DNA of 64,000 nucleotides from a virus. The stretch lies in IMG/VR virus record IMGVR_UViG_3300035117_000094, positions 39,589 to 103,588 of that record; one strand, given 5' to 3'. Below the pieces are notes generated by a model, which was not told where the DNA came from, searched no databases, and saw only the letters and a list, made by a program, of their open reading frames with translations. The translations under genes were made by a program, and so were the position numbers. Below are positions 32,161 to 50,360 of this stretch, in pieces (position 1 is the stretch's first letter; each line of letters opens with the position of its first letter).

Positions 32161-35100
32161 TTAGCCCCCGGTGGCGAAGAACGCGTGCCGGGTACCCGAG
32201 GCGAGGCTGCCGTTGATCACGGTGCCAAGGGCGTGAGGCTGCTGCTGCATCAGCCTGACGAGCTGCTGGAGGAGCTGGATGAGCAGCGTGCCCTGAACCT
32301 GGGTTACCGGCTGGGACTGCGGGCCGCTGACAGCGCTGTCAGCCGGGGCCAGCAGCGGGTTGAGGGAGTTCGCGCCGAAGCTGAACACGGAACCCGCCAG
32401 CAGCGCGCTCAGCGTCTGCGAGGCACCGGTAGTGCGCAGGGAGCTGACTGAGCCGCCGCCCTGTAGGCCGGGCACGCCCGCGCGCTTGGCCATGTCCTTG
32501 AACGCGGGCGCGTGGCTCGTCGGGATCACCAGCTCTCCCGGTGCCAGGGCGCGCAGCGTGGAGTCCTGCCCGGACGGCCCGCTGCCGCGCACGATGTAGG
32601 CGCCCGCTGCGTGATGGGGGAACAGGCCCGGCGCCGACACGCCCGGGATAGGCCCCTGCACGGTGCCGGGGATGCTTATCATCTCCTGGATGCGCACCGT
32701 GTAAGTCTGGGCCGTGAGCGCCTGGATGGCTGCCGCTGCGGCATCGGCCTTCTGCTGGAGCTGGTCTAGCTGGGCGTTGACTGCCGCGAGGGCGCCCGGG
32801 GCCACGCCGAGCTTCTGGAGCAGCGCGTCCGTCATCGCCTTGGCCTGGTCAGTGCCGATGCCCGCCGACACCATCGCCTGGTAGTACTGCCCTGCCAGCG
32901 TGGTCGCCAGCCCGGTCAGCTTGCCGTGCGTCTTGCCCAGCGTGTTGATCAGGTTGTTCTGGATCGCGTTGAACCGGCTGCTGGACAGGATCGCCTGCGC
33001 CTGTGACTGGGTGACGTCCTGCACCAGGGCGTTGCCGAGGTTCCTGGCCGCCTTGGACAGCTCGGCGGCGGTCCGGGCGAGGGCCTGCTGCTGCTTGTCC
33101 AGGTCAGCGGTAGCGTTCTTCGCGTTGCCGACCCACTTGGCCAGCGCGGCGAAGCTGTTGGCGCCACGGTACCCGGCCACCTGGGCAAGCCCGTACAGTG
33201 ACGTGGTCGCGTGAGCCGACCCCTTGGCGAACGGCAGCAGCGTGGCGATGATGTCGCGGCCGGCCTGGTTCAGGTGCTGCTGCGAGGCAGCGGTGTTCCC
33301 CGAGGCCGCCGCCAGCATCTGGAGGCTGCCGTACAGGGTGCCGGCGGCGGTTATCTGGGAGGTGAACGCCTGCCGGACTGCCAGGGCCGCCTGCGAGGTG
33401 CCGTTCATGGCCGCGCCGGTAGCGTCGTACTTCTGCTTCAGGCCGCCGACCTTGACGGTGAAGTTCGTGGCGGAGTTAGCGCCGTTCTTCAGCGTGTCGG
33501 CCAGCGTCTGGTTGCCCTGGATGAACGCAGTGAACGCCGCCTCGCCGCCCGTGATGATGCCGAGCCAGTTCTGCTCGGCGGACGTGAGCGTCTGCACGGC
33601 CTGCGCGGTGGTCCCGGTGGAGATGTTCAGCGTGTCAAGCTGGTTGCCCAGGGTGCCCGCCTGCTGGCCGATGAACCCGTAGGCCGCCGCCGTCGCCAGG
33701 AGCTTCTGCTGGTCCAGCGCCCACGCCTGCGCGTTGGCCGTCGCGATGTCGCCCTGCTTCACCCCGGCCAGGTTGAACAGCTGGAGCAGGCTGGCGGTGT
33801 CCCCGTAGGACTTGCCGAGGGAGTTCAGCCGCAGCGCGGCGGTGGCCGACTGGTCAGCGTACTGCTGGAGGGCCGCCGTGTTCGCCTGGATCTGGCCCTT
33901 CTGCTGGCCGATGGCGTGCGAGACGCCAGCCGAGGTGTAGCGGTTGCTGTCACGGGTGAGCTGCGTGATGGCTACCCGCTCGCCCTGGATAGCCGCCGTG
34001 GTGGCCTTCATGGCGGCGGCGACGCTGAACTGCACGTTGATGATGCTCGACGCCGATATAGTCTTCTCCAGCTGCGCGTTCAGCTGCGCGGCGGCGTCCG
34101 TGGAACTCCTGAACGCGAGGAACAGCACCCCGCCGATGGCCACGGCGGCGACGCCCGCCGCAAGCCCGGCCGGCCCGAACGGGATGGCGCCGAGGGCGTC
34201 CCGGAATACGGCGGTGGCGCCTGCGGCGACGCCCTCGGCCTTGGTGATGTAGAGGATGTCAGCGCCCCACGCGACGGCGGCCTTGCCCGCGCTGACCAGT
34301 GCCCCGGCCGCGCTGCCGACAGCGGCGCCCCACGCGGAGATCTTCCCGCTGGTGGCCACGGCTGCCTCGCCAGCCGCCACGGCACGGAACGCCGTCACCG
34401 CCGCGCGGCTGAACGTGCCGAGGATGGTGGCGGCCAGGCCCAGGTAGAAGATGGCGCCGTGAATGGCCAGGAACTTGGCGATGATCGGCTGCGCGGCCTG
34501 GATGACGTCAGCCGAGACGGTCAGCGCGGCAGTGCCCAGCTTCAGCAGGATCTCCGCGTACCCGGGCACGGACTTCAGCAGCGTGTTAACGATGCGGCCT
34601 ACCTGCTGGAAGGACTGCCCGAGCAGGTTGATGTCGCCGGCTGCCTTGTTCAGGAACGTGCCGCCCGTATTGGAGTTGAGCGCTACGACGGCCTTGGCCG
34701 CGAAGTTGTCCAGCACGCCGCCGATGTTCTTCAGCACGGTCGCGAAGTGACTGCCCTTGTTGCTGCTGATCGTCAGCCAGTCGCCCCAGAGCTGGAGCGC
34801 CTGCGGCTTGACTGCTACTGACAGCTTGTTCATGCCCGCGTTCACGTGGTCGAAGCTCTGCCCCGCTGCGGTAACTTCGGTGCGCACGTTCTTGAACTGC
34901 GCGTAAACGTCCCTGGCGATCGGGTACGCGGCTAGGCCGAACGCCGTGAGGCCGATGATGGCCGGACCCCAGACGGCGGTGAACTCAATGACGGCCTCGG
35001 CTACGAGGTGGAAGCCTGAGGCGGTGGTGATGAAGTTCTTGCCGAGGTTCGCCAGTCCCTTGTCCAGGATGTCCGCGTCCTTGGCGTACTGCATGGACGT

Positions 35101-35478
35101 GGCGAACAGCGGGATGTGCGTGTTCTGTATGGCGGCCAGCGCCCGGCCGAAGATGCCGAACCCCTTCGCCGCCCGCGTGGCGGAGGCGCCTGACTGGTCA
35201 GCGGCGCCGCTCAGGCCGTTGAGGGCGCTGGTGGCGTTACGGGCGGCGGCAGCCACGCCGGCCGTGCCGGAGGCGTTAGCGCTGACGTTGACCTTGCCGC
35301 CCTTGGCCAGCGCGTTAAGGGCCTTGATCTTGGCAGCGGCCCCGGCCGTGTTCGCGCCGATGTTGATGCTCGGGTTGATCCCCGTCAGCGCGGCCCGGAT
35401 CTTGGTGTTGGCCTGGCGCTCGAACTTGGTGGTGTCCGGGAGGATGGCTACGTAAGCCTCGCCGATGAGCCGTGGCAC
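32161..35478 (-). CDS. tape measure protein
   Basis: 1105 aa Ala-rich helical, IGEAYVAILPD N-terminus, downstream of tail chaperones. Confidence 0.92.
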   Translation of the reverse strand: MPRLIGEAYVAILPDTTKFERQANTKIRAALTGINPSINIGANTAGAAAKIKALNALAKGGKVNVSANASGTAGVAAAARNATSALNGLSGAADQSGASATRAAKGFGIFGRALAAIQNTHIPLFATSMQYAKDADILDKGLANLGKNFITTASGFHLVAEAVIEFTAVWGPAIIGLTAFGLAAYPIARDVYAQFKNVRTEVTAAGQSFDHVNAGMNKLSVAVKPQALQLWGDWLTISSNKGSHFATVLKNIGGVLDNFAAKAVVALNSNTGGTFLNKAAGDINLLGQSFQQVGRIVNTLLKSVPGYAEILLKLGTAALTVSADVIQAAQPIIAKFLAIHGAIFYLGLAATILGTFSRAAVTAFRAVAAGEAAVATSGKISAWGAAVGSAAGALVSAGKAAVAWGADILYITKAEGVAAGATAVFRDALGAIPFGPAGLAAGVAAVAIGGVLFLAFRSSTDAAAQLNAQLEKTISASSIINVQFSVAAAMKATTAAIQGERVAITQLTRDSNRYTSAGVSHAIGQQKGQIQANTAALQQYADQSATAALRLNSLGKSYGDTASLLQLFNLAGVKQGDIATANAQAWALDQQKLLATAAAYGFIGQQAGTLGNQLDTLNISTGTTAQAVQTLTSAEQNWLGIITGGEAAFTAFIQGNQTLADTLKNGANSATNFTVKVGGLKQKYDATGAAMNGTSQAALAVRQAFTSQITAAGTLYGSLQMLAAASGNTAASQQHLNQAGRDIIATLLPFAKGSAHATTSLYGLAQVAGYRGANSFAALAKWVGNAKNATADLDKQQQALARTAAELSKAARNLGNALVQDVTQSQAQAILSSSRFNAIQNNLINTLGKTHGKLTGLATTLAGQYYQAMVSAGIGTDQAKAMTDALLQKLGVAPGALAAVNAQLDQLQQKADAAAAAIQALTAQTYTVRIQEMISIPGTVQGPIPGVSAPGLFPHHAAGAYIVRGSGPSGQDSTLRALAPGELVIPTSHAPAFKDMAKRAGVPGLQGGGSVSSLRTTGASQTLSALLAGSVFSFGANSLNPLLAPADSAVSGPQSQPVTQVQGTLLIQLLQQLVRLMQQQPHALGTVINGSLASGTRHAFFATGG

Positions 35479-36876: not shown

Positions 36877-37341
36877 TTAGGTGCCGGAGATGCCCGCTGC
36901 CGGGTACCGCTGGACCTGCGCTGCCGCGTTCCAGCTCGACTTCATCGTGACCGCGCTGGCCACGCCACCGGAGGCGGCGTAGTCAGGGAGGATCAAGCCG
37001 AAGAAGTACTCTCCGGAGCTGATCGTCGCGTTGCCGGGGCCGCCGTTCACGGCGACGAGCGTCGGGTACAGGTACATCGCCCGTGGCTGGCCGTCTACGG
37101 CTGCCTGGTACGTCTGGGCAGACGCGGTGTCCATGAACCCGGTGAAGTCGCCGCTCGCATCGGGCAGGCCGGCCACCCAGATGAGGTTGGTGTCGCCGAG
37201 GGCGGTCACGTCCACCTTGGCAACCGTGAAGTTTATTGTCCAGTCCGAGACGAAAGACATGGGCGTCGCCGGGTTGGCGCCGTTGTTCCATGGCTGGACG
37301 CTCAGGTAGACCATGCCGTTGCGACCGTGTATCCGGCCCAT
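36877..37341 (-). CDS. major tail (tube) protein
   Basis: MGRIHGRNG..., DWTINF...VDVTALGD...GLPDASG. Confidence 0.85.
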   Translation of the reverse strand: MGRIHGRNGMVYLSVQPWNNGANPATPMSFVSDWTINFTVAKVDVTALGDTNLIWVAGLPDASGDFTGFMDTASAQTYQAAVDGQPRAMYLYPTLVAVNGGPGNATISSGEYFFGLILPDYAASGGVASAVTMKSSWNAAAQVQRYPAAGISGT

Positions 37342-37478: not shown

Positions 37479-37826
37479 CTATACGGCAGCGCCCGCGCTG
37501 TCCACGGGTCCGAGGCCGCGCGCTATGATGGCCTGCACCAGGGCCTGCGCCGTGACCTCGTCAAGGGCGGCGAGGTACCCGTCAGGGTCGATGACGCCTG
37601 CTACCAGGTCCGCTTCAACGAGTGCCAGGTACACGTCAGCCTGCCACCCGGAGTAGCCGAACGGCCTCTTGGCGCTGAACTTCTCGCCCCGGCGCCACAG
37701 TGTGGCGAACAGCGCCCGCAAGTACGCGCCGACCGTCTCGCCATCGGACTCCCCCGTGACGGGCCGTCCTTCCGGGACGCGGATCCTCGCCGCCGCAGCG
37801 GCCCGCACCATCTCGTCGCTGATCAT
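37479..37826 (-). CDS. hypothetical protein
   Basis: ATGA overlap; FSAKRPFGYSGW. Confidence 0.65.
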   Translation of the reverse strand: MISDEMVRAAAAARIRVPEGRPVTGESDGETVGAYLRALFATLWRRGEKFSAKRPFGYSGWQADVYLALVEADLVAGVIDPDGYLAALDEVTAQALVQAIIARGLGPVDSAGAAV

Positions 37827-39001
37827 ACGGTCAGCCCCGCGTCCTCTAGCCAGCCCATGATCTTCAGGGCGTTGTTGCCGAACGTGCGGTCCAGGATCTT
37901 CTCGCGTGCCTGCCGGGCGCGCTCCTCGCGCAGGGAGTCCAGCTTAGACCAGTGCCGGATCAGCTCCGCCGCCTCTTCCGGCGAGCTGAAAGTAGGCAGG
38001 ATCCCGTCGAACAGCTCGTCGCCCTCGCCGCGCGGGTCGCGGATGAAGAACGTGCCGCAGGCGGCCAGCTCGACTTCACGCGGACCCATGGACCAGCCCG
38101 CGTAGTCGGTGCCGTCCTCGCCCTCGCGCCGGTACAGGTTCAGGCTCGTCTTCGCGATCCGGTACTGGCGCGCGGTCTCCTCGTTGTCAACGCACAGCTC
38201 CGGGTGGTGCCCCATGTAGTCGAGGAGGTGCGCGTTGGCCGGCTCGGTGACGGCCTCACCCCAGCCGCCGCCGCCGATCGACCACCGGACGCCCGTTAGG
38301 TCCATCTGGCCGAAGAAGTCCCGGCGTGACTTGAACCCGGTGCCGATGAACGTGAAGTCGGACTCGTAAGGCTCGGAGCGCGCGAACTTGCGCTCGCGGT
38401 CCCCCAGTTGCGTGACCTCCGCGACGGTCACCGGGTAGTGGACCTCCGGGTCGTAGGCGTGCGGCAGGTAGTGCGTGCGAAGGCCGGCGGCCCGCCACGC
38501 CGCCAGGTTCACCGGGTCGTTGATGAGGTTGAGGTCCATGTGCGCGCCGATGGCCATCTGGCGCTCGTCCTCGTACGGGCTTTCGGTGTGGATCATGGCG
38601 AGCTTCATCCCGCGCGCCCGCAGCACCTCGAAGATCGCCTCGTCATAGAAGAACCCCGAGGTGAACACGATGACGTTCGGCCAGAACACGAAGGCGTCCT
38701 CGAAGATCTGCCGGGTGACGATCGTGGTGACCTGCTCGTCGGTGAGCGCCTTCTTGAACGGCTCCTGGCCGCACGCCTCGCAGGAGGGGAGCTTGCGCGA
38801 CCCGTCCCAGTCCTCCGGGTAGTCCTTCAGGTAGGTGTTGCCGTGGTACATCAGCCGGTGGTTCATGTTGAACGTGATCACCGGGTGCCCCAGCTTGCGG
38901 AACGCCTTCTCATAGCCACGCCAGACATCGTGGACGGAGAACTCGGGACCGGGGTGCGTCAGGAGGATGCGCAGGTGCTCAGGGTCATTGGCGAGGCTCA
39001 C
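37823..39001 (-). CDS. CgeB/YkvP-like glycosyltransferase (GT-B)
   Basis: ESPYE, YLPHAYDPEVH, FIGT, PREVELAACG, RTF. Confidence 0.85.
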   Translation of the reverse strand: MSLANDPEHLRILLTHPGPEFSVHDVWRGYEKAFRKLGHPVITFNMNHRLMYHGNTYLKDYPEDWDGSRKLPSCEACGQEPFKKALTDEQVTTIVTRQIFEDAFVFWPNVIVFTSGFFYDEAIFEVLRARGMKLAMIHTESPYEDERQMAIGAHMDLNLINDPVNLAAWRAAGLRTHYLPHAYDPEVHYPVTVAEVTQLGDRERKFARSEPYESDFTFIGTGFKSRRDFFGQMDLTGVRWSIGGGGWGEAVTEPANAHLLDYMGHHPELCVDNEETARQYRIAKTSLNLYRREGEDGTDYAGWSMGPREVELAACGTFFIRDPRGEGDELFDGILPTFSSPEEAAELIRHWSKLDSLREERARQAREKILDRTFGNNALKIMGWLEDAGLTV

Positions 39002-39031
39002 GACGGCAAGTTTACACGAGGCCGGGGGAGG

Positions 39032-39502
39032 CTAGACCAGGCCGATGGTGAAGTGGATCCGGGCGCCGAAGTACATGACGCCGTTGTAGTCGAGCGGCGC
39101 GTAGGAGTCCGCCGTGACCGGCTCGCACCACTGCACGACCCCGCCAAGGGTATCGTCCATCGCGACGGCCATCGGGATGCTCACCGTGACGCCGGGGATA
39201 AGCTCGTAGCCGAACCACTGGTCGAGGGTCTGCTGCACGGTATCGATGTCGGCGTTCCGGGCGATGGCCACCATCACGTCCAGGCTGAAGGACGACGCGG
39301 CGTAGGGACTGCGGGTGACCGGGTCCATGTACGCGCCGCCGAGGGTCTCCCCGTACTTCGCGAAGGTCCCGTGCGCGGGCAGCACCAGCGCCACGGGCGG
39401 GCTTATCTGGTCGGCGGGGTTACCCTCCGCCTGGATGGCCGGGAACGCGTTGGCCGCTATCTGCGCCGCCAGCGCCGTCCGCACTGCCCTCAGGCTTGCC
39501 AT
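39032..39502 (-). CDS. tail terminator/completion-like protein
   Basis: Position; DDTLGGVV...ARIHFTI; GGAGG SD. Confidence 0.65.
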   Translation of the reverse strand: MASLRAVRTALAAQIAANAFPAIQAEGNPADQISPPVALVLPAHGTFAKYGETLGGAYMDPVTRSPYAASSFSLDVMVAIARNADIDTVQQTLDQWFGYELIPGVTVSIPMAVAMDDTLGGVVQWCEPVTADSYAPLDYNGVMYFGARIHFTIGLV

Positions 39503-39857
39503 GGACTACCTCCGTCAGGTGCTGCTTCAGTTCCTCGTGGCGCGTGTCAACGTGCGTGACCATGCTGGCCTTCAGCTCCTCGTGGCGCGCGTCCACGTGG
39601 CCGGCCGTCAGCTCCGTGGTGAAGAAGCTGAACACGGAGGCCAGCAGCGGCACCACGGTTACCATCATAGCGGCGATAAGCCAGTACCCCGCCGGGTTGT
39701 CCGGCAGCACGTCACAGCCGACCGTGGTCGAGGTGCCCAGGGCGCAGTACAGGCCCTTCCACACGGCGATGTGCTCAGACGCGCTGTACGCCAGCCCGAA
39801 CGCGACGTTCAGGGTCACGGTGGCGATCAGCACCCTGAATGCCCGCTTGTGCTGCAC
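39420..39857 (-). CDS. KcsA-like 2-TM ion channel (Ion_trans_2) with altered filter TTVGCD
   Basis: TM1, GLYCALGTSTTVGCDVLP...G, TM2; starts 2 nt after upstream stop. Confidence 0.75.
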   Translation of the reverse strand: MQHKRAFRVLIATVTLNVAFGLAYSASEHIAVWKGLYCALGTSTTVGCDVLPDNPAGYWLIAAMMVTVVPLLASVFSFFTTELTAGHVDARHEELKASMVTHVDTRHEELKQHLTEVVHGKPEGSADGAGGADSGQRVPGHPGGG

Positions 39858-39859
39858 GG

Positions 39860-40906
39860 CTACCCCGCCACCTTCCAGCTCACGGCCCACGCTTCCTCGG
39901 TGGTGCCCTCGTACGGCAGTTCCTGGCCCCAGGATATGACCCGGCGGCCAGGCAGGGATACTGCCGCGTGCGGGCCGAGCGGCGCCCGGAAGCCGATGAC
40001 GTGGCCGGGCACGAGGCCGAGCGCCGCCGGCACGCGCGTTACCCCGGCGACCCGGACCGGGTGGCCCGCGACGGCGAGCACGTCCCCCAGGACCGCGAGT
40101 CCCTGCGGTATCGTCGCCCCGGGGCCGCACGCCCGCTCCAGCCGGCGGAACATCAGCGGGGGCACGCGGTAGCCGGTGTGCAGCAGCATCGCGTTGGCCA
40201 CGGCCACGGGCACGCAGTTCGCGTCCTCCGGCCGGCCGAGCCACGGCCCCTGGTCCTTTCCCGTCGCGACGAGGGAGGACGGGGCCTGCCGCCCGGCCGG
40301 GGCCTTCCTTGCCGCCGCCAGCCCCGCCGCTACCACCGAAGCCTGCTGCGCGGCGGTGAACTTCGACCTGTTCCGGCCACTGCCGGGGCTGGCCTGCACG
40401 GACCTGCTCGCCTTGCCGGCCGCCCGCCGCGCGTGCGCGAACACCTGCTTCTCGTGGGCCACGGCCTGCGACTGGGTGACGGTGCGGAGCACGGCTTTCG
40501 TCACGTACTTCCGCTCGCCCGCCTGCGCGAACTGGAGGCGCCCGAGGATCTTCGCGTGCCGGAAGTAGTCTGCCTTGATCCGGTTCTGGAGGCTGGCGTT
40601 CTGGTGGCCGCGCACGCTCTGGAGGTAGGACTGCTTGACCGCGAACGCGGCGACGGCTGCCGTCTGGGCTGAGTGGTAGACGGCGTTGTACTTCTTCGCC
40701 GTGGAGTAAGCGGCGGCCAGCCGCGACCTGCGGAAGCCCGAGGCAGCGCGCGAGATCGCGATCTGCCTGCTCTTGGCCGCCGCGCCGGCGCGGTACGCCT
40801 TCCACTGGGCCGCGCTGAGCTGGAGTCCACGGGCTGTCTTCTTCCCGGTCTTGGACCCGGCCGGCCGGCCGCGCTTGCCCTTCGGTGCCTTGCTCGCGGC
40901 AGCCAC
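39860..40906 (-). CDS. K/R/A-rich basic protein with C-terminal papain/C39-like domain
   Basis: Histone-H1-like N-terminus; NCVPVAVANAM...PHAAV. Confidence 0.6.
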   Translation of the reverse strand: MAAASKAPKGKRGRPAGSKTGKKTARGLQLSAAQWKAYRAGAAAKSRQIAISRAASGFRRSRLAAAYSTAKKYNAVYHSAQTAAVAAFAVKQSYLQSVRGHQNASLQNRIKADYFRHAKILGRLQFAQAGERKYVTKAVLRTVTQSQAVAHEKQVFAHARRAAGKASRSVQASPGSGRNRSKFTAAQQASVVAAGLAAARKAPAGRQAPSSLVATGKDQGPWLGRPEDANCVPVAVANAMLLHTGYRVPPLMFRRLERACGPGATIPQGLAVLGDVLAVAGHPVRVAGVTRVPAALGLVPGHVIGFRAPLGPHAAVSLPGRRVISWGQELPYEGTTEEAWAVSWKVAG

Positions 40907-40907
40907 G

Positions 40908-41930
40908 CTACACCCCGGCTTTGCGCCTCATATTGACGTAGTCCTTCATCAGCTCGACGACCCACGGGTTCGACTGGACCTTGACGATGCCCAGGTCGGA
41001 GACGCCGGCGACGCCCCACGGCGCGTCCTTGCTTTTATACAGGTCCACCGCCAGCAGCATTGCCGCCTGCGAGATCGCCGGGGGAACCGAGTTCCAGCCC
41101 CACGTGCCGGTTACCTGCACGCGGTTCAGGTAGGTGTACGGCCAGATCCACGGCAGCCAGCCGCCGCCCGGGATGGCAGACACGCCGGCTACCCCGGTAA
41201 GCACCTGAAGCTGCCGGTAAGGGCGCGGGACGCCGGCGGCGTTGATGTTGTAGTTGTCCTCGCTGTTGCCCATGCCGCCGAGCTTGAGCTGGTAGTTGAC
41301 CCCGAGCGCCCAGGACACGTCATAGACGCCGTTGCCGTTGTAGTCGAGGTTTACCTGCGTACCGGACACCACCGCCGGGTCGGATACCAGGTCGTCCAGC
41401 GGGCACCCCCAGACGCTCTCCGGGATGAACGTCCGGGCCTCGTGCAGCCGGTAGAAGTGACGACCGCAGTAGTTGTTGACCCAGTTGGCGACTACCTGGA
41501 TGGCGAGCTGCGCCTCGTAGTCGTAGCGGTTGTCACTGATGTTCAGCCGGTGCTTCAGCTCGTCGAGGCCGGTATACCAGAACTGCGCGCCCGTGCCCAC
41601 GTCGGACAGGGGGATCAGCCGGAAGGTGCCGGGCGTGACCTGCTGGACGCCGTTGCCGGTGCCGACCCACGTGAAGCTGTACAGCCCGGAGACGGTCAGG
41701 CCGTCCACGGTCAGGGCGTAGTTGCCGGCCGACTCCTTCTCGACGTGCCCGATACCCGTGTTCGAGGGGTTATACACGTAGCTCGTGATCGTGCCCGCAG
41801 GGTCCGTCACCACGCACGTGATCGAGCTGGGGTCGGCCAGCTGGCCGGTGGTCGCGTCCACGAAGGCCACGGGCGTCACCGCCGCTGCCTCGCTGGGGCT
41901 GGAGTAGTAAATCTGCACTCCGCTGCTCAC
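40908..41930 (-). CDS. head-tail connector/adaptor with N-terminal Ig-like domain
   Basis: YTGLDELK...YCGRHF...VTGTWGW..VPPAISQAAMLLA. Confidence 0.85.
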   Translation of the reverse strand: MSSGVQIYYSSPSEAAAVTPVAFVDATTGQLADPSSITCVVTDPAGTITSYVYNPSNTGIGHVEKESAGNYALTVDGLTVSGLYSFTWVGTGNGVQQVTPGTFRLIPLSDVGTGAQFWYTGLDELKHRLNISDNRYDYEAQLAIQVVANWVNNYCGRHFYRLHEARTFIPESVWGCPLDDLVSDPAVVSGTQVNLDYNGNGVYDVSWALGVNYQLKLGGMGNSEDNYNINAAGVPRPYRQLQVLTGVAGVSAIPGGGWLPWIWPYTYLNRVQVTGTWGWNSVPPAISQAAMLLAVDLYKSKDAPWGVAGVSDLGIVKVQSNPWVVELMKDYVNMRRKAGV

Positions 41931-42087
41931 CTGGCCACCTCCGGTTCAATGCTATCTAGCGCCGGAGGCCGCCGCCACCCGCAGTGACGACGGCCTCGCG
42001 ACGAGATGTAACCGGACCACCTCCCGGATCGCAGTGCTACCGTTCACCAGCACCACCTCCCCGGGAGAAGAAGATCCTGTCCTCAGG

Positions 42088-42303
42088 CTATCCGGTACCC
42101 TCCGGGTTCCGCCAGATCATCTTGGCCTGCGTGAAGGCGTACCCGGCCGCCGCGCTGCCGAACGGGCTGCTGACCGCTTCGAGGATGCCACTGACGGCGA
42201 GCCTCGTGGACCCGTGCGTCTCTGTCCTGACGACGTTGCTGAACACCGCCATCTCGTCCTCGGTCAGGGTCGTGGTCTCCAGGTCGTAGGTGAACGCCCT
42301 CAT
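42088..42303 (-). CDS. hypothetical protein
   Basis: ATGA overlap. Confidence 0.5.
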   Translation of the reverse strand: MRAFTYDLETTTLTEDEMAVFSNVVRTETHGSTRLAVSGILEAVSSPFGSAAAGYAFTQAKMIWRNPEGTG

Positions 42304-43001
42304 TGCCGGGACGCCGCCGTGGCCTGCCGTAGCCGGTGGTCTTCCAGGTACAGGTCCATGGGCATGACGTAACCGGGCCACCGGCCGTCGTTGAATACGT
42401 GCAGGTCCCGCCGCTCGTACGAGGCGTCCGCAAGCTGAGAGCAGATGACGTGCCCCTGGTCCTCGATGAAGCCCTTCAGCCCTGGTGCCGGGACGTGCAG
42501 GCGGTGCAGCGCGAGCGCCTCGTAGTCGAGGAAGGCGTAGCCTACGCCCTCGAACTCACGGGCAGCGTCGGCTACCCCGGTCAGCTCGTACGCCGTGAAC
42601 TTGGAGGCGATGCCGTAGCACCAGTAGACGGACGGGTACTTGCTGACGTTCACGATCTCCGCGCCGCCCGGCTCCGCCTCGATGCAGGTGCCCTCGGTGT
42701 CCAGGGCGACGAGGGCGTGCTCGTAGCGGGGCAGGTCGTTCCTGCGCAGCCAGCGGTCCATAGGCGTTTCCGCCAGGTACTGGCCGAGGTGGATGAGGCG
42801 GCCTACCTCGCCGCCGATCTCCGTTAGCCCGATAAGCCCCGGGGCGGGCGCCTCGCCGAAGAGGCCGTTGCTGGGGGGTGCCATGGCATCCAGGGTACGC
42901 GGTGCGGCCTTAGCCCACTTCGGCGGCAGCTCGGGCACGGAGTGGATTCCGTGCCAGGGCACCCGGCGGTCGTCGTCGTCGTCGTCGTCTTGTTCGCTCA
43001 T
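42300..43001 (-). CDS. permuted papain-like NlpC/P60 (YiiX/YebB-like) enzyme
   Basis: YEHALV...IEAEPGG...ICSQL...PMDL (His before Cys). Confidence 0.8.
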   Translation of the reverse strand: MSEQDDDDDDDRRVPWHGIHSVPELPPKWAKAAPRTLDAMAPPSNGLFGEAPAPGLIGLTEIGGEVGRLIHLGQYLAETPMDRWLRRNDLPRYEHALVALDTEGTCIEAEPGGAEIVNVSKYPSVYWCYGIASKFTAYELTGVADAAREFEGVGYAFLDYEALALHRLHVPAPGLKGFIEDQGHVICSQLADASYERRDLHVFNDGRWPGYVMPMDLYLEDHRLRQATAASRQ

Positions 43002-43016: not shown

Positions 43017-43583
43017 CTAGAAGGCTGGTTTCATCCAGGCGCCGCGCGGTGCGTCCCACTCATCGACTACCGGTATCCACCGCGTCATGTCCGTGGTCTC
43101 CCAGCCGCCGCCGGCCAGGATCGCGCCGGGCTTCATCGCGGCCATGATCTTGCGCTCCAGCTCGGCTTCCAGGTGAACGTCCCGGAACGGCATGTACAGC
43201 CAGATGATGTCGTAGCTGCCGTAGTCCTCGAAGTCCAGGGCGTCCTTCGCGAATACGGTGGAGTGCGCGCTGGCCACTCGCGCCATGGCCAGGTCCACCT
43301 CGATGCCGGCTACGTCCAGCCCGAATATCTCGCGGGCAAGCGTGCCCTTGGTGGCCGGCCCGCAGCCCACGTCGAGGAACCTGGCGCCGTTCGCCTCCGC
43401 GACGACCTCGGCCATGATAGACATGAACTCGCCTACCTGGAACGGCATCCACGGCGTGTACACGGGGTCTTGCCGGTTGCTGCCGTGGGACTTGTACAGG
43501 TGCTCCGTCTGCATGGCGTTTCGCAGGGCAGTCTGGACGTGCCCTGCGCGCCAGCTAGCGGCGTCACTCGTGCTGGGGATCAT
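43017..43583 (-). CDS. class I SAM-dependent methyltransferase
   Basis: FLDVGCG, GIEVD, DAL, YDIIWLYMPF, MKPGA. Confidence 0.85.
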   Translation of the reverse strand: MIPSTSDAASWRAGHVQTALRNAMQTEHLYKSHGSNRQDPVYTPWMPFQVGEFMSIMAEVVAEANGARFLDVGCGPATKGTLAREIFGLDVAGIEVDLAMARVASAHSTVFAKDALDFEDYGSYDIIWLYMPFRDVHLEAELERKIMAAMKPGAILAGGGWETTDMTRWIPVVDEWDAPRGAWMKPAF

Positions 43584-43791
43584 GCTGGCTCTCCGGGGGG
43601 TCTGGGGGCAGGGCAGTCGGGCGGGTAACGGCGGCCATGGCCGCGCACCAGTGACGACGCGTCTCCGGGGGCAGGTCACGCCATTTCGGCATGGGGCCGT
43701 CCCAGTGGTCCTTCCACCCGGCATCCTCACCATAGCCGTCGTAGGCGCGGTGAGCCAGCCCGGAGATCACGTCGTCCCAGGTGCGCGGCAT
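43564..43791 (-). CDS. hypothetical protein
   Basis: PMPKWRDLP...W small phage protein. Confidence 0.55.
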   Translation of the reverse strand: MPRTWDDVISGLAHRAYDGYGEDAGWKDHWDGPMPKWRDLPPETRRHWCAAMAAVTRPTALPPDPPESQHDPQHE

Positions 43792-43793
43792 GG

Positions 43794-43976
43794 CTATTCC
43801 GGGTCCGGCCAGAACTTCAGGCTCGGGTCGGCGGTGATGCGGGTGCCAGCCAGGGCGGACGGCATGACCTCATCAGGCAGGGCGTCCTCGCCGGGCACGA
43901 AGTCCGACAAGCGGTCACCGCCACGGAGTTCGATTGGCCGGACGGGGAATTCCGGCTCGGTAGCGTCAGCTTCCAT
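43794..43976 (-). CDS. hypothetical protein
   Basis: GAGGAG SD before ATG 43976. Confidence 0.5.
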   Translation of the reverse strand: MEADATEPEFPVRPIELRGGDRLSDFVPGEDALPDEVMPSALAGTRITADPSLKFWPDPE

Positions 43977-44029
43977 CAGGTTCTCCTCTCGCGTCAGGGT
44001 CACCCTACCACCTGCGCGCCGTGCGGGGA

Positions 44030-44656
44030 CTACGGGCAGGCGTAGGTGAAGGAGGGCCACACGTCGATGGTCACCTCTTCCACCCGGGCGAACTTAACGC
44101 CGGCCCGCAGCCACGCGCTGACGATCTCCCAGTCCTCGGTAGCGGACGGCGGACCCCAGGTGGCCACGCTTTCCAGCTCGCGCCTGTGCAGGATCATGGG
44201 CGTCCCGATATTGCAGGAGGCCGGGTACTGCCCTGTCCCCACGATGGACTCGCCGGGGACCGGGTGCTCGTAAGTCATCATCCAGGAGTACGCGAACCCC
44301 GCTTCCGGCTCGGCTTCCAGCGCGGCGGCCAGGAGGCTCACGTGGCGGGGCCGCAGGGCGTCGTCGCTGTCCACGTACCCGATCAGCTCCCCGGCAGCGT
44401 GCGCCAGCCCTTCCCTGCGGCCCGGGCCGCCCCAGTGGCGCTCCGGGTCGTGCTCCGGCAGCTCGAAGTACCGGACGGGGTGCCGCAGGCCGCCCAGCGC
44501 GTCCACGGCCTCGCGCAGCACGGGGTCAGGGCCGTCACTGACGATGACGTGCTCGACGGCCGGGTACTCCTGCGCCTGCACGCTGGGAACGCACCGGCCC
44601 AGCAGCAGCTCGTGGCGCCCCCAGGCAGGCGTGATAACGGTGACCAGCGGCGTCAT
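44030..44656 (-). CDS. GT2 (GT-A) glycosyltransferase
   Basis: LVTVITP, VSDG, YVDSDD, EDWE. Confidence 0.9.
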   Translation of the reverse strand: MTPLVTVITPAWGRHELLLGRCVPSVQAQEYPAVEHVIVSDGPDPVLREAVDALGGLRHPVRYFELPEHDPERHWGGPGRREGLAHAAGELIGYVDSDDALRPRHVSLLAAALEAEPEAGFAYSWMMTYEHPVPGESIVGTGQYPASCNIGTPMILHRRELESVATWGPPSATEDWEIVSAWLRAGVKFARVEEVTIDVWPSFTYACP

Positions 44657-44657
44657 G

Positions 44658-45560
44658 TCAGCGAACCCTCCTGGCGCGCAGGGCGCGGTCGATGCCCTCT
44701 TCCAGTGATACCCTCGGCTCGTAGAACTCTCGCAGCAGCGACGGGTCGCACACCCGGTACGCCGCGCCCTCCGGGGTGCCGGGCACCAGGCGGATAGCCG
44801 GGCTGTAGCCTGCGGCGCTCGTCACCATGACCGCCAGCTCCCGCATCGTCACCGCGCGGCCCGTGCCCAGGTTCACTGGCCCGTCCATGCCGAGGTTAAC
44901 CATGCCGTAAGACGCCCTGACGATGTCCTCGATGTGGATGAAGTCCCGTGCCTGCTCGCCCGATCCCCAGACGTCGAAGGGGTCCTCGCGGCTGGCAGCC
45001 CGCGCGATGAAGGCCGGGAACGGGTAGCTGGGGTCCTGGTCGGTACCGTAGCCGGAAAATGGCCTGACCACCGTGACGTTCAGGCCCTCCTGCCGCGCCC
45101 GGTACGCCAGGTTCTCCCCCGTCAGCTTGGTCCAGCCGTAAAGCTGGTCGGGAACGCCGGCTACGGGGCCTGCGAATGACGGGTCGATGAAGTCCTCGTA
45201 CAGCCTCTGCCGGGCGGTCTGGCGCTGGAAGTGGAGCGGGTAGGCGGCCGAGCTGGAGAAGTACAGGATCCGGCCGGGGCGGTTGCGCAGCGCCCACTGG
45301 AACAGGCCCGCGTCCAGCTCCAGGTTGGAGGCCAGCGCCAGCGGCGCCCCGTCGATGAGCTTCCGGCCGCCGACTATCGCGGCAGCGTGCACGACGAGGT
45401 CAAACTTGCCCGTGCTGCCGAGCCGGAAGAACTCGCGGGCGTCCTGGTCCGGGTGACGCCGGATATCCAGGGTCAGCAGCTCGAAGCCCCGGGCCGCCAG
45501 GTAGGCCGTGAAGTGCCTGCCGACGAACCCGGCGCTGCCGGTGATGAGGGCGCGCTTCAT
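44658..45560 (-). CDS. NAD-dependent nucleotide-sugar epimerase/dehydratase
   Basis: ITGSAGFVG, SSSAAY, YGWTK, RDFIHI. Confidence 0.92.
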   Translation of the reverse strand: MKRALITGSAGFVGRHFTAYLAARGFELLTLDIRRHPDQDAREFFRLGSTGKFDLVVHAAAIVGGRKLIDGAPLALASNLELDAGLFQWALRNRPGRILYFSSSAAYPLHFQRQTARQRLYEDFIDPSFAGPVAGVPDQLYGWTKLTGENLAYRARQEGLNVTVVRPFSGYGTDQDPSYPFPAFIARAASREDPFDVWGSGEQARDFIHIEDIVRASYGMVNLGMDGPVNLGTGRAVTMRELAVMVTSAAGYSPAIRLVPGTPEGAAYRVCDPSLLREFYEPRVSLEEGIDRALRARRVR

Positions 45561-46150
45561 GCCCGCTCCGCCGCGATGACCTGGAACCCGGCCACCTGCT
45601 CGTGCCGGATGACGCGCCACCCGCCCTGCTCCAGCAGGTTCCGGTAGCCGGCCATGTCCCAGGCCCAGGCGTGGAACTCGTAGTGCGACCACAGGCTCTC
45701 GTTGGCCGGGGACGAGGCGACGAGGTAGCGCGTTTCCCGCGCCATGCGGGTGACGAACGCGTGCGGGTCCGTCAGGTGCTCCAGGATCTCCGTGACCACG
45801 GTGATGTCCCCGTACTCCGGGTTCCCGGTCACCACGTCCAGCACCCCGGCGGTCATCCCGCGCTCGCAGGCGCCCTCGACGGCGGCGTGGCACAGGTCAT
45901 AGCCCCAGCAGCGGGTCAGCCCGGCCGTGCAGTCTACGAGGGACATGAGGCCGCCGTCGCCGCAGCCGAAGTCGGACAGGGTACGGCAGCCGTTCGCTGC
46001 TGCCAGCATCCGGACGAACTCCGTCGCGAGGAACAGCCGGTCACGGTGGGCGGCCTGCTCCAGGTGAGGAGCGCGCTCGCGGCCCGCGTACCATTCCGCC
46101 GTGGTGAACTCGGGAACCGTCCCCTCGGGGAACAGCCGCCACTCAGTCAT
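45557..46150 (-). CDS. class I SAM-dependent methyltransferase
   Basis: DFGCGDG, EILEHLTDP. Confidence 0.85.
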   Translation of the reverse strand: MTEWRLFPEGTVPEFTTAEWYAGRERAPHLEQAAHRDRLFLATEFVRMLAAANGCRTLSDFGCGDGGLMSLVDCTAGLTRCWGYDLCHAAVEGACERGMTAGVLDVVTGNPEYGDITVVTEILEHLTDPHAFVTRMARETRYLVASSPANESLWSHYEFHAWAWDMAGYRNLLEQGGWRVIRHEQVAGFQVIAAERA

Positions 46151-46695
46151 GCGCATCTCCAGACCTGGAAGGTGTAGTAGGCGTTCGACTCCGCCGTGAA
46201 CAGCGTAACGTCACGGGCCGTCCAGCCGGCCGCCGCGAGCATGGCGTCCAGGTCGCTGGTGTCCCAGCCCCAGTAGTGCTGCGGGTTGCGGGCGTCAGAC
46301 TCGCCGCAGGGGGTGGTCAGCAGCAGGCGGCGGGCCTTGCCCCTGATCGCCCGCAGCAGGGCATCAGGGTCCTCGATGTGCTCCAGCGTCTCCGAGCACA
46401 CGAACACGTCCACCGGGGGGATCTCCTCGATGGTGCGCTCGATCGGCCCGGTGAAGTCCCGGCCGCCCGTGTAGTCGCCCAGGAACGCGATGTCGCTGAG
46501 CTGGGCCATGCCGACGACGGCCCCGTCACCACAGCTCAGGTCGGCCACGTTATGAGGGGACATCGCGCGCAGGAGCCGGGCCGTGTACGCCACCCGCTCG
46601 ACGTGATCAGGCCAGTCGGTGTGGTCGTAAGGCCGGGCGTACACCTGCGCTAGCTGCGCCGGGCTGTGGAACGGCCGGAGCTGGACCCTGGTCAC
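46147..46695 (-). CDS. class I SAM-dependent methyltransferase
   Basis: DLSCGDG, SETLEHIEDP, LLTTP. Confidence 0.85.
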   Translation of the reverse strand: MTRVQLRPFHSPAQLAQVYARPYDHTDWPDHVERVAYTARLLRAMSPHNVADLSCGDGAVVGMAQLSDIAFLGDYTGGRDFTGPIERTIEEIPPVDVFVCSETLEHIEDPDALLRAIRGKARRLLLTTPCGESDARNPQHYWGWDTSDLDAMLAAAGWTARDVTLFTAESNAYYTFQVWRCA

Positions 46696-47375
46696 AGGCC
46701 GAGCGCCTTCCTGAGCCGGGCCAGCTCGCCGGGCCACTCGTCCGCCACGTACTGCGCGTAGCGCCGTCCGTCCAGCGCGTACTGCGCGCCGTTGTTGGCG
46801 CTGGCGTACGTCTCGTCCCACGCGGCCTGGCCCACAGTGGGGTGCATGTGCTCGATGATCACGTCGTCCTGGTAGGCCAGGTTGCCGACGCCCTCGCCCA
46901 GCTTCTTCCAGAAGTCGTCCAGGTACAGGTGCTCCAGGGCGGCCGGGACTAGGTAGCCGAGGGCCAGGATGATGTCCGAGGACATCACGACCGCCGTGGG
47001 CAGCTCGGCTCCCTTGATCAGGTCGTTCCCGTAGGCGACGCCCGGCTTGCCGTCGAGGGCCGCGATCAGCTTCTCGTCCCAGCCGGGCGTGCGGGGCAGG
47101 TGGTCGTCGCCCATGAACCCGGTGTGCGTGCTGAACAGGGCTTCCTTCGGCGCGTAGTGGTTCAGGATCGGCCCGATGCGCCGCAGCCCGGGGGCCACGA
47201 CCTCCAGGGGCCAGCCAAGCGCGAGCGCGGCGTACTCCTCGCGGGCCGGGTCGTCATGGTCCACGAGGAACACGAGGTGGGTGTCCGTTGACGAGGCCGT
47301 GTCGAGCGCTGCCTCGGCTAGCCGCGTAGCGTTCCCGGGCCGGCCACGCGTGGGCACCATTATCGTCAGGCTCAC
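46692..47375 (-). CDS. GT2 (GT-A) glycosyltransferase
   Basis: VPTRGRP, VDHDD, MGDD, HLYLDD, IEHMHP. Confidence 0.85.
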   Translation of the reverse strand: MSLTIMVPTRGRPGNATRLAEAALDTASSTDTHLVFLVDHDDPAREEYAALALGWPLEVVAPGLRRIGPILNHYAPKEALFSTHTGFMGDDHLPRTPGWDEKLIAALDGKPGVAYGNDLIKGAELPTAVVMSSDIILALGYLVPAALEHLYLDDFWKKLGEGVGNLAYQDDVIIEHMHPTVGQAAWDETYASANNGAQYALDGRRYAQYVADEWPGELARLRKALGL

Positions 47376-47680
47376 CGGATCTCCTCGGGGGGAAGCTCAG
47401 TCAGGGCCATGGTGACGGGCTGGGCAAGCGCTACGCCCCGGTGCTCGGCGCCCGCGCCGTCCCGGACGGTTATCATGCGCCGCGCGCCGTCAACAGGCAG
47501 GTACGAGTGCACGGTGACGTCCGCCCGGCCGTCCTCGTAGCGACGGAACTCTGCCTTGAACACGTACTTCAGCGGCCTGCCATCCGGGGCAAGGAACCGC
47601 TCGCACCACGCGGTCAGCTCACGCGATGGCAGCGCGCCCGCGCTGATGTCGAAGCCGAAGGTCTCGGCTACTCCATTCAT
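47372..47680 (-). CDS. hypothetical protein
   Basis: GAAAGG SD, overlaps. Confidence 0.55.
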   Translation of the reverse strand: MNGVAETFGFDISAGALPSRELTAWCERFLAPDGRPLKYVFKAEFRRYEDGRADVTVHSYLPVDGARRMITVRDGAGAEHRGVALAQPVTMALTELPPEEIR

Positions 47681-48750
47681 GCCTTTCCTCCCTGGAACTG
47701 CCATCCTACGGGGAACAGCGCCTTGTACGTGTCCTCCCATTCCCGCCAGTGGCCCTCGATCGTGTTAGCGCGGGCCGTCTCCAGCGCGGCGGCCTTCATG
47801 CTGAAGCGAAGTTCATCATCGCCGGCCAGCAGGCTCAGGTAATTAAGCCACTCATGCTCCCGCTTAACCAGGAAGCCGTTCTCGCCGTGGCGGATGAAGC
47901 GCCTGTACGGCTCCACGTCGCTCGCGATGACGACGGCGCCGCGCGCCATGTACTCCAGCGCCTTGACGGGGGACTTGGCCCGGTTGAACTCCGTGCCGGC
48001 CAGCGGGGCGATGCCGATGTCGAAGTCGATCGCGCGGTAGTAGAGCTTCGGCCGCATGCACACCGGCAGCCACGGGACGTGGAAGGTCCGGTCGAACGGC
48101 GTCCCGGCCTCGCGGCGGAAGTCCACGCCGTTCACCCAGCAGTGCCACTGCGGGAACCGCTTCATGAACCGCGCCAGCGAGTTGCCGGGCACCGCCAGGT
48201 CCTTCTTGTGCGAGCTGCCGCCGGCCCAGCCGACCCTGGGGTGGCCCTGCCGGTCGTCGCTGGCCAGTCCCAGCACCCACTCCGGGATGTAGTTGGGCAG
48301 CACCGTGACGGGCACGTGCGGGGACATCTCGCGGTGCAGGTCGCCGAGGTACGGCGTCGTCACGGTGATCAGCGAGGCCGTGTCGCAGTACCGCTGGACC
48401 GCCTCGCGGATGTCGCCGCCCTCCTCGTAATGCTTGTACGCCGGGTTGCTGGGGTCGATGTGCCACACGTCGTCGTCGTTCTCGTACACCGTGCGCCGCT
48501 GCGGCGTGACCATCCGCCGCCACATGCCCAGCCCCTTGTAGCTGTTGACCCGCTGGGCGAGGAAGACGTCCGCCCCCTCGGCCTGGCCCGGGGAAGTCAG
48601 CAGCGGGTCGCCGGTTATCTCGTCACCGGCCAGGGCTGAGCAGAACGAGACGCTGGTATCCTCGCTGTGCTCGTTAACGGCCTTCAGCGGGACGTAGACA
48701 CGGTACCAGGTGCACCCGGAGCCGCCGTCGTGGGCCGCAAGGATCTTCAC
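47677..48750 (-). CDS. GT-B (GT4-like) glycosyltransferase
   Basis: YENDDD, VGWAG, DIGIAPL...KSPVKALEYMARG...ASDV...NGFLV. Confidence 0.9.
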   Translation of the reverse strand: MKILAAHDGGSGCTWYRVYVPLKAVNEHSEDTSVSFCSALAGDEITGDPLLTSPGQAEGADVFLAQRVNSYKGLGMWRRMVTPQRRTVYENDDDVWHIDPSNPAYKHYEEGGDIREAVQRYCDTASLITVTTPYLGDLHREMSPHVPVTVLPNYIPEWVLGLASDDRQGHPRVGWAGGSSHKKDLAVPGNSLARFMKRFPQWHCWVNGVDFRREAGTPFDRTFHVPWLPVCMRPKLYYRAIDFDIGIAPLAGTEFNRAKSPVKALEYMARGAVVIASDVEPYRRFIRHGENGFLVKREHEWLNYLSLLAGDDELRFSMKAAALETARANTIEGHWREWEDTYKALFPVGWQFQGGKA

Positions 48751-48753
48751 ACG

Positions 48754-48779
48754 GGAATGCTACCCGACGACAGGTCGTT
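48754..48779 (+). promoter_or_regulatory. sigmaR/SigH-type promoter overlapping a divergent -10 box
   Basis: GGAAT-N18-GTT; minus-strand TAGCAT overlaps the -35. Confidence 0.7.
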
Positions 48780-48787
48780 ACCGGGAC

Positions 48788-49078
48788 ATGAGCATGAGCA
48801 CCTGCCCGCGCTGCGGGTACGAGGACCCGGACGCCCTCCGGGCGGGAGACACCCTGTACGGGTACTGCGGCGGCGAGTTCGGCCGGGACTCCTACGAGGA
48901 CAAGAAGGTGCTGGCCATCGGCGCTACCTGGGTCCTCGTGCAGTACGGCAGCGGGGCCACGGCCACCCGGGACGGCGACCCGCAGGAGCTGGCGCAGTAC
49001 CGGGTGAAGCGCTGCTGGTCATGCGATGAGCCAGTTCCTGCGGGCGGCGAGTGCCTGAACGGGTGCGACGGAGGGTAG
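48788..49078 (+). CDS. Cys-rich hypothetical protein
   Basis: CPRC...CWSC...C...C; follows promoter. Confidence 0.65.
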   Translation: MSMSTCPRCGYEDPDALRAGDTLYGYCGGEFGRDSYEDKKVLAIGATWVLVQYGSGATATRDGDPQELAQYRVKRCWSCDEPVPAGGECLNGCDGG

Positions 49079-49088
49079 GCTGGCCGTC

Positions 49089-49706
49089 ATGGAGATCATG
49101 ACCCTGGCGCAGCATCACGACGCGTGGCAGGCCCTCGTCGCCGGCCGGCTGTCCGGCCGTGCTGCCTGGCGCGGCGTAACCTGTCACCAGCACCCGGCTG
49201 ACCTGGCCCGCTGCGCGCGGCGCATCCGTGAGCTGAAGCCGCCGTGGCTGCTCCGGACCGCGATAGGCCGGGGCGGGACGATGGCGTTCCTCGCCGACAC
49301 GATGCGCAAGGTGAACCCGGAGAGCCGGTGCATGTTCGCGGACACTGAGCTGGAGCTGGTGAAGTGCCGCGTTAGCACGGGCACCCTGCCCGGCGCCGAG
49401 GTCTACATGGGCAGCACCGTCAGCCCCGTGCTTTTCCGGGAGTTCGCCAGGTTCGCGGGGGGCGAGCGCGGTATCGTCTTCCTCGGCGGTAACCGGGACG
49501 CGGGGCAGGTTACCGCCGAGCTGGACTTGTACGCGGCGCACGCGAGCTACCTGGTAGCAGAGGGCACTGCATGGGATAACCGCGTGACGGAGGCCCTCAG
49601 CACGTGGCTGGAGTCGCACCCTGAGTTCGCCGCCGACCCTGACCCGCAGCCGAGCCAGCACCCGGGCGGCTGGCTGCGACGGGTAAGCGACAGCGCGAGG
49701 GGCTAG
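49089..49706 (+). CDS. CmcI/rhamnosyl O-methyltransferase-like protein (divergent)
   Basis: WRGVTCHQHPADL...LKP..., YLVAEGT, HPGGWLRRV. Confidence 0.7.
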   Translation: MEIMTLAQHHDAWQALVAGRLSGRAAWRGVTCHQHPADLARCARRIRELKPPWLLRTAIGRGGTMAFLADTMRKVNPESRCMFADTELELVKCRVSTGTLPGAEVYMGSTVSPVLFREFARFAGGERGIVFLGGNRDAGQVTAELDLYAAHASYLVAEGTAWDNRVTEALSTWLESHPEFAADPDPQPSQHPGGWLRRVSDSARG

Positions 49707-50357: not shown

Positions 50358-50360
50358 GGC

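Follow-up and report, generated by a model that had tools for sequence, protein, structure and literature searches.

Small potassium channels with two transmembrane (2TM) helices have been catalogued in tailed phages, among them Myrna and Phabba (Mycobacterium), BillNye (Streptomyces), ME3 (Acinetobacter) and ventosus (Pseudomonas), in a survey of 2018 that held no functional data (Greiner et al., PMC6163359). Here we describe a channel gene at positions 39420 to 39857 (minus strand) of a 64,000-nucleotide stretch of viral DNA, called the window below, which is the right-hand 64 kb of the 103,588-bp IMG/VR record IMGVR_UViG_3300035117_000094 (68.7% GC; estimated 88% complete). The catalogued proteins are likewise about 117-124 amino acids (aa) long, have two transmembrane helices and belong to tailed phages; they carry canonical K+ signatures, unlike the channel of the window, whose selectivity filter reads TVGCD. 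A canonical member of the family to which this channel belongs matches BillNye, ME3 and ventosus by tblastn.

The most similar filter among solved structures is an engineered one. In NaK C-DI (PDB 7OOR, 7PA0, 8AYP) the residues DGNF were swapped for C-DI, copying the filter of the AMPA receptor GluA2 (Minniberger et al., bioRxiv 10.1101/2022.08.08.502946). According to the same report, the new filter is one residue shorter and straightened, its outer part forms a wide vestibule, and its unchanged TTV part holds K+, Rb+ and Cs+ at sites S3 and S4, with no Na+ bound there (bioRxiv 10.1101/2022.08.08.502946). Its conductance is 66 ± 12 pS, and its authors write that no other tetrameric channel is like the GluA2 filter, for which they had to engineer the mimic (bioRxiv 10.1101/2022.08.08.502946). 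NaK C-DI and the phage channel are both two-TM pores, with TTVGCDI in the former and TTVGCDV in the latter, each followed by x-P. They differ in that NaK C-DI is a laboratory construct with about 20% overall identity to the phage channel, has Phe at the Cys38 position and is without the C-terminal repeat bundle, whereas the phage channel is natural and under selection in many lineages.

Other described channels share more general features. KcsA of Streptomyces lividans (3EFF) has the same order of parts, namely TM1, pore helix, filter, TM2 and a C-terminal four-helix bundle; 124 columns were aligned to the full-length structure, and the profile match had an E-value of 2e-5. We take TVGYGD, the W67/W68 cuff and E71 of KcsA to correspond to TVG-CD, Y37/C38 and G41 of the phage channel, the Cys38 column presumably being that of W68. 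NaK (Bacillus cereus) and pores of the cyclic nucleotide-gated (CNG) type also keep the T-V-G base, with an outer filter other than GYG (structural Z 12.4), but the NaK filter TVGDGN has the length of a K+ filter, and that of the phage channel is one residue shorter. In chloroviruses the channel Kcv brings about a depolarisation of the host by which infection with a second virus is prevented (PMC7019647). It is also a virus-encoded miniature 2TM channel, and Kcv-type proteins are among the fold matches in BFVD; Kcv itself is K+-selective and works during entry, from a membrane inside the virion. Since tailed phages have no membrane of this kind, the phage channel must act from the membrane of the infected cell.

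The gene of the window is predicted to encode a miniature two-transmembrane pore-loop cation channel, within a metagenome-derived family which also holds K+ channels with TTVGYGD. The best overall explanation, to which we give a rough probability of 0.55, is a late-made, weakly selective mini cation channel in the host membrane. That the gene is real and expressed is close to certain. The sequence-only reading had claimed a pore open reading frame (ORF) hidden within a longer ORF call, and its coordinates and filter string proved correct on frame and on GC content at third codon positions (GC3). The minus-strand frame 39420-40805 is open over 461 codons, of which the channel gene is the final 146. 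In a GC3 frame plot, the coding signature typical of this genome (GC3 0.87-1.0) was confined within the long frame to about 39875-39560; the upper 948 nt are non-coding by GC3, and the real gene there is a 348-aa ORF (39860-40906) in another frame. The GTG at 39857 is placed 2 nt past the TAG of this upstream gene, and the N-terminus (M)QHKRAF agrees with the MHHKRAL-type starts of homologues. The translation reads as claimed, with TM1, WKGLYCALGTSTTVGCDVLPDNPAG, TM2, HVDARHEELK and HVDTRHEELK in this order, and the stop codon is at 39420-39422. The parts of the gene are as follows, where helices are those of AlphaFold2 (AF2) models with their predicted local distance difference test (pLDDT) values.

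39420-39857, minus strand: channel gene, 145 codons plus stop, with the GTG start at 39855-39857; homologues begin at the same position.
39774-39854, minus strand: N-terminal basic stretch (QHKRAFR, net +3 by charge count) and outer helix TM1, residues 2-28 (AF2 helix, pLDDT 90-98).
39729-39764, minus strand: pore helix, residues 32-43 (VWKGLYCALGTS), including Cys38 (AF2 helix).
39711-39728, minus strand: selectivity-filter segment TTVGCD, residues 44-49, one residue under TTVGYGD in the family alignment.
39618-39695, minus strand: inner helix TM2, residues 55-80 (AF2 helix from 55), with near-invariant Pro70 (148/149 family rows) and Phe76.
39504-39617, minus strand: cytoplasmic C-terminal helix, residues 81-118, with two 15-residue repeats (39555-39599 and 39510-39554); a four-helix bundle in the predicted tetramer (AF2).
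39420-39503, minus strand: unconserved tail, predicted to be disordered, residues 119-145 plus stop (pLDDT 60-65), overlapping the start of the tail-terminator gene.

The final 27 codons of the channel (39502-39423) overlap the tail-terminator gene, and GC3 there tracks the terminator frame. The overlapped C-terminal tail is absent from homologues, which are mostly 100-130 aa long, and is predicted to be disordered. The two HVD units are 15-residue repeats whose DNA, compared directly, is identical at 27/30 positions over the first 30 nt and at 31/45 overall; Tandem Repeats Finder missed the two 45-nt units.

The family and its filter were defined by a profile search of 1.84 billion representatives, which gave 276 matches at E ≤ 1e-3 and 146 at E ≤ 1e-10. 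An alignment of 155 sequences was made from 150 listed representatives, the window protein and close relatives. In 84 of the 155 the filter is one residue under TVGYGD, mostly as T-x-G-[C/G]-D (TVGCD 19, TDGCD 10, TVGGD 9, with TLGGD, TFGGD and TEGCD among the others), while the canonical T-T-V-G-Y-G-D is found in 54. A word-indexed search also gave five relatives retaining GLYCA...T-x-G-[CG]-D. It means that TVGCD is no singleton mutation, and the change of GYGD to GCD, one residue shorter and with a Cys, is borne out as a family-conserved feature. Canonical TTVGYGD proteins are within the profile matches (P0019 at 1.5e-28, for example), and both groups share Gly35, Tyr37, Thr45, Gly47, Asp49, Pro52, Pro70, Phe76 and His87. 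From these common residues the short-filter proteins are derived members of an ordinary small K+ channel family. Within the short clade T45 and G47 are invariant, and G35, P70 and L71 are at least 90% conserved.

Ten clusters that were looked up had metagenome sources only, with no name or the name "hypothetical". The DNA of the locus had no match among GenBank phages, and tblastn with two short-filter queries (P0001 and P0008), the window protein and a GGD-type relative, found none in 50,697 GenBank phage records, so that the clade is without a cultured phage or host as anchor. The channel itself matched PHROG 14690 at 4e-5, and the nearest clusters in the ESM Atlas were of the Ion_trans_2 type at 0.87, which serves as a lead only.

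Other odd filters occur in 17 of the 155 sequences. Some, such as TTSGNSPF, TTAGGDNV and TTSGSSVP, are of normal length and non-canonical, and in certain short-filter members the Cys is displaced (T-x-G-G-D-C, T-E-G-A-C-T); the proteins with an odd filter or a moved Cys are P0038-P0040, P0052, P0054, P0069, P0093, P0094, P0115, P0116 and P0119. Judged from the alignment, the filter seems unusually plastic across this small-channel family.

A KcsA-type pore-loop fold, as the sequence-only reading had suggested, was supported by AF2 models and structure matches, and we regard this fold as highly probable. The pLDDT was 90.4 for the alignment of the whole family and 90.3 when the alignment was restricted to short-filter sequences, with the same helices at residues 2-28 (TM1), 32-43 (pore) and 55-118 (TM2 and cytoplasmic extension), the loop 44-54 forming filter and turret. 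With VIA-align the best match was the MthK pore (Z 12.6, root-mean-square deviation (rmsd) 1.9 Å over 80/81 residues), and the best 50 matches were tetrameric cation-channel pores throughout. The best Foldseek matches were NaK C-DI, full-length KcsA and MthK. Fold matches in the PDB further include NaK and its mutants and K2P channels, and the BFVD list is headed by viral K+ channel proteins. The charge is +3 at the N-terminus and -2 in the pore loop, which places the N-terminus inside and the filter outside.

For the tetramer, four copies of residues 1-118 were folded alongside controls. The interface score ipSAE was 0.62 against 0.00 for the best control, with at least 89% contact agreement between runs and partner pLDDT of at least 78; of proteins with solved structures, 20 of the 30 same-chain pairs attained this mark, as did 1 of the 23 single chains. 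The AlphaFold check put forward earlier thus gave a channel-like interface. In the model the pore helix contacts the TM2 of its neighbour, T45 meets T45 at the axis, and the C-terminal helices form a bundle whose inter-chain contacts recur every 15 residues (88/103/118, 92/107, 95-96/110-111, 99-100/114-115), in register with the HVDxRHEELK repeats. Relatives have one to three units of this type. Histidines 87, 92, 102 and 107 face the predicted bundle, where they might act as a pH- or metal-sensitive gate. On this model the protein is likely to be a conducting homotetramer. Four subunits would surround a central pore and be held together by the packing of pore helix on TM2 and by the cytoplasmic bundle of 15-residue HVDxRHEELK-type repeats.

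The filter departs from the K+ signature T-x-G-[YF]-G-D, as it reads T-V-G-C-D and is one residue short. T45-V46-G47 is kept and the outer part is C-D, which in sequence is the pattern of NaK/CNG-type pores. When the short-clade profile was compared with all PDB sequences, the best matches were NaK C-DI chains (E 1.1e-8 and 3.1e-8; wild-type NaK 1.4e-3), with TvGcDv aligned over TVGCDI. The non-selective cation channel suggested by the sequence-only reading therefore gains an experimental proxy, a conducting channel with TTVGCDI which keeps S3 and S4 only. As in NaK C-DI, the T-T-V of the phage channel would maintain the inner sites S3 and S4, whose occupancy we read across from the NaK C-DI crystals, and the outer half would open into a wide vestibule. 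In NaK variants, marked K+ selectivity was obtained only with four contiguous sites (PMC3082925), and a further study describes four-site filters alone as markedly K+-selective (PMC9822992). A filter with fewer than four contiguous sites makes a weakly selective monovalent-cation conductance likely. By this analogy we somewhat favour a channel for monovalent cations that discriminates poorly between K+ and Na+. In the literature search no report of TVGCD or TVGGD as a natural filter was found, and the NaK C-DI preprint was the one relevant paper.

Several points weigh against a weakly selective channel made late. Bi-ionic recordings of NaK C-DI were mostly one-directional, molecular dynamics (MD) let K+ through and almost no Na+, and the TTVGCDI filter placed in GluA2 gave no current (bioRxiv 10.1101/2022.08.08.502946). 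The residue between filter Thr and Gly is Val here and D, E, N, R, F, L or A in relatives; such a variable middle residue is unusual for a carbonyl-lined filter, and the filter geometry may be different. The Ion_trans_2 profile (PF07885), which the sequence-only reading had named as a check, covers 72/79 of its positions on the channel at 15.6 bits (E 0.015), under the Pfam gathering cut-off of 22.5, and a minority of clade members (26/77) match it at E ≤ 0.01; the family profile instead reaches canonical TTVGYGD proteins at E 1e-28. The family tree (149 rows, 84 columns) has 15 well-supported branches, too few to decide for or against a single origin of the short filter. K-channel tetramers have been solved many times, so that the tetramer result may reflect structures already known to the predictor and speaks for likeness, not proof. 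Late expression is read from gene order only, and conduction, selectivity and expression of clade members are predicted from sequence and models.

One alternative is that the channel is still K+-selective, the shortened filter rearranging in a way that preserves selectivity. The phage would use it to let K+ follow the membrane potential, and might for instance replenish the cytoplasm with K+ for late synthesis and the packaging of DNA. Canonical TTVGYGD channels are close in the family, the NaK C-DI crystals hold K+, Rb+ and Cs+ without Na+ at S3/S4, the simulations favour K+ strongly, and in some relatives the gene adjoins terminase or capsid genes. However, the NaK variants lose marked selectivity with fewer than four contiguous sites (PMC3082925), the filter is one residue short and the canonical Tyr/Trp pair is gone. 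We consider K+ selectivity unlikely.

The aromatic backing given to the filter Tyr by the pore helix is absent from the channel, which has Y37 and C38. Residue 38 is Cys in 67/84 short-clade sequences and Trp in 46/54 canonical relatives. An outer-filter Cys is always accompanied by Cys38 (54/54), and variants keep a nearby Cys in another register (G-D-C, A-C-T), while Cys38 stands alone in 13 sequences and the filter Cys alone in none. A Cys pair replacing the Tyr/Trp pair fits this pattern, and as a lead from the alignment a disulfide, redox or metal site on the outer face is possible. A redox- or metal-dependent channel, in which Cys38 and Cys48 on the extracytoplasmic side form a disulfide or a thiol/metal site setting filter conformation or gating, would refine a weakly selective cation channel and would not exclude it. 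But on the tree the association reduces to 4 independent pairs (sign-test p 0.25-0.5), the 13 sequences with Cys38 alone speak against it, and residues 38 and 48 are outside the confident inter-chain contacts. The redox sensitivity proposed in the sequence-only reading therefore rests on a co-occurrence that does not reach significance after correction for shared ancestry, and such a dependence is improbable.

Another alternative is a non-conducting protein, where the channel fold serves as a tetrameric membrane anchor or perturbs the membrane, in the manner of a holin or antiholin or as a superinfection-exclusion factor blocking DNA entry. Where a gene for a small membrane protein has been inserted in a phage structural operon, its product is often a factor of exclusion or lysis, such as HK97 gp15, and the middle filter residue is strongly variable across the clade. 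However, three residues, the Thr and Gly of the filter and the Gly of the pore helix, show little or no variation in the clade, and a protein without a pore would hardly account for this. The candidate endolysin (genome 27756-28847) is about 50 kb from the channel (near genome 79000), and holins in BFVD match the model with probability 0.14-0.25 and rmsd above 10 Å. On this position and this fold, identity as a holin or lysis-cassette member was rejected, and a non-conducting role in general is improbable.

The dominant-negative subunit of the sequence-only reading, which would co-assemble with a host KcsA-like channel and poison it, found no support and is very improbable: it has general pore-domain similarity in its favour, against a predicted homotetramer of its own with a family-specific C-terminal bundle and a diverse clade over phages of 57-69% GC, contrary to adaptation to a single host partner.

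GluA2 (QQGCDISP according to the NaK C-DI study) has the G-C-D-[IV]-x-P motif and the filter length in common with the phage channel. The phage channel lacks the ligand-binding domain, the third helix and the Q/R-site glutamines of the AMPA receptor, with T-V at the position of Q-Q, and its predicted topology is that of K channels, not inverted as in ionotropic glutamate receptors (iGluRs). Transmembrane domains of AMPA receptors are present among the fold matches, and Lig_chan (PF00060) is weakly matched by 3/77 clade members (best E 0.0015). Descent from or to iGluRs was rejected as unsupported: no iGluR chain was found at E ≤ 10 with the clade profile or with a pore-loop-only profile. The likeness stands at the level of the motif and may be convergent.

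The channel lies in the late module of the window, which on the minus strand has the order terminase, portal, protease, capsid, glycosylation cluster, adaptor, 348-aa gene, channel and tail terminator, with large tail proteins beyond the tape-measure-like ORF. Its placement in the virion gene cluster, noticed from the sequence alone, was confirmed by the neighbouring adaptor, tail terminator and major tail protein.

57923-59659, minus strand: large terminase.
54563-56200, minus strand: portal.
52974-54494, minus strand: protease.
51414-52787, minus strand: major capsid.
About 43-49 kb, minus strand: glycosyltransferase and epimerase gene block.
40908-41930, minus strand: head-tail adaptor.
39860-40906, minus strand: 348-aa gene upstream of the channel, with no family match.
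39032-39502, minus strand: tail terminator (PHROG 17840, E 4e-9), with ATG at 39502 and GGAGGT before it, within the channel gene.
37823-39001, minus strand: further glycosyltransferase.
36877-37341, minus strand: major tail protein.
32161-35478, minus strand: 1105-aa ORF with a weak tape-measure match (PHROG E 6e-4).

There is a 2-nt gap between the channel and its upstream gene and an 82-nt overlap with the downstream gene. The stop of the 348-aa gene lies 2 nt before the channel start, so that both are co-transcribed. No promoter-like or terminator-like site was found on the minus strand at 38800-42400. Embedded in the late operon and lacking promoter and terminator signals of its own, the gene is expected to be expressed late in infection.

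Relatives were located on nine IMG/VR contigs and four genome-collection contigs; the latter four loci, from a 6-row alignment search, are all metagenome-assembled genomes. The channel is co-oriented with late genes wherever neighbours could be identified, and its place among them varies between five or more sites.

Immediately upstream of the large terminase: L003 and L007, identified by PHROG, and L004, for which the gene layout alone was matched.
Between the major capsid gene and a glycosyltransferase: L001, L002 and L011, whose capsid is 57-67% identical to that of the window.
Following the major tail protein: L005.
About 5 kb upstream of a tape-measure-like gene: L008 and L009.
Between the 348-aa gene and the tail terminator: the window.

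In L001, L002 and L011 the channel stands between a capsid-proximal 127-aa gene and a 357-aa glycosyltransferase. The corresponding interval of the window (48750-50953) holds other ORFs instead, some on the plus strand (49089-49706). No neighbour gene is conserved alongside the channel, and the changing position together with this is the behaviour of a mobile accessory gene. Phage morons have a variable insertion site and a promoter and terminator of their own; a variable site was seen here, and at the window gene neither of these signals would fit. The channel behaves like a mobile accessory (moron-like) gene selected for late co-expression, and is neither a virion part nor a member of the lysis cassette.

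Two relatives (L013:7965-8357 and L014:7845-8294) are on Actinomycetota metagenome-assembled contigs of 2.8 Mb and 243 kb, and their neighbours gave no usable PHROG match. L009 (IMGVR_UViG_3300036820_000008) has 57% GC, compared with 65-69% in the other loci, and the clade is therefore not limited to one host GC range.

The rest of the genome showed further features. The phage, a large one of soil type, encodes its own DNA polymerase and helicase. Genes for glycosyltransferases, methyltransferase-like proteins and nucleotide-sugar epimerases lie between capsid and connector genes (43017-48750, minus strand), and this block together with the further glycosyltransferase at 37823-39001 suggests virion glycosylation. 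The 348-aa protein is rich in Lys, Arg and Ala in its N-terminal third and has no Pfam or PHROG match, and no homologue of it was found in the related loci. Two tail-region proteins of 1978 aa (26143-32079, minus strand) and 982 aa (23194-26142, minus strand) have Laminin_G_3 (concanavalin-like) domains, the larger one with an additional glycine-rich domain; they are probably receptor-binding or tail-fibre proteins.

Under the favoured explanation of a late-made, weakly selective cation channel, the product would be inserted late into the host cytoplasmic membrane, with its N-terminus inside and its filter outward, and would dissipate or clamp the membrane potential. The pay-off could be that superinfecting phages are blocked, that host transport is shut down, or that holin triggering is advanced; any such benefit to the phage is speculative, and a depolarising or potential-clamping role late in infection is held by us as tentative. 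In the clade one filter residue is deleted (TVGYGD to TVG-CD or TVG-GD), and Cys takes the place of the Trp in the pore helix which in canonical channels stands behind the filter Tyr. By this one-residue deletion and Trp-to-Cys change, nature would have arrived at the same hybrid as the hand-built NaK C-DI. The wider proposal, that a natural, diversifying clade in uncultured actinophage-like phages has converted a K+ filter to the AMPA-type G-C-D-[IV]-x-P on a T-T-V base for use as a late depolariser, is put forward with some doubt. The kind of channel is already known. What is new, as far as searched, is that the shortened filter is conserved, that Trp has changed to Cys and that the filter matches the AMPA mimic.

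Small K+-type channels of tailed phages have been catalogued and never assigned a function, and placement in the late or structural module despite moving points to a selected role late in infection, in control of the host membrane. Nature supplies channels of about 100 residues with nearly the AMPA-mimic filter, in many variants and with canonical sister sequences, which make a comparative set for the effects of filter length, the Tyr/Trp cuff and outer-mouth cysteines on selectivity. If the two-site, wide-vestibule structure is true, these channels would be a natural minimal model of iGluR-like non-selective permeation, and the family would present a living series of the loss of K+ selectivity, from TVGYGD through TVGGD and TVGCD to further forms such as TTSGNSPF.

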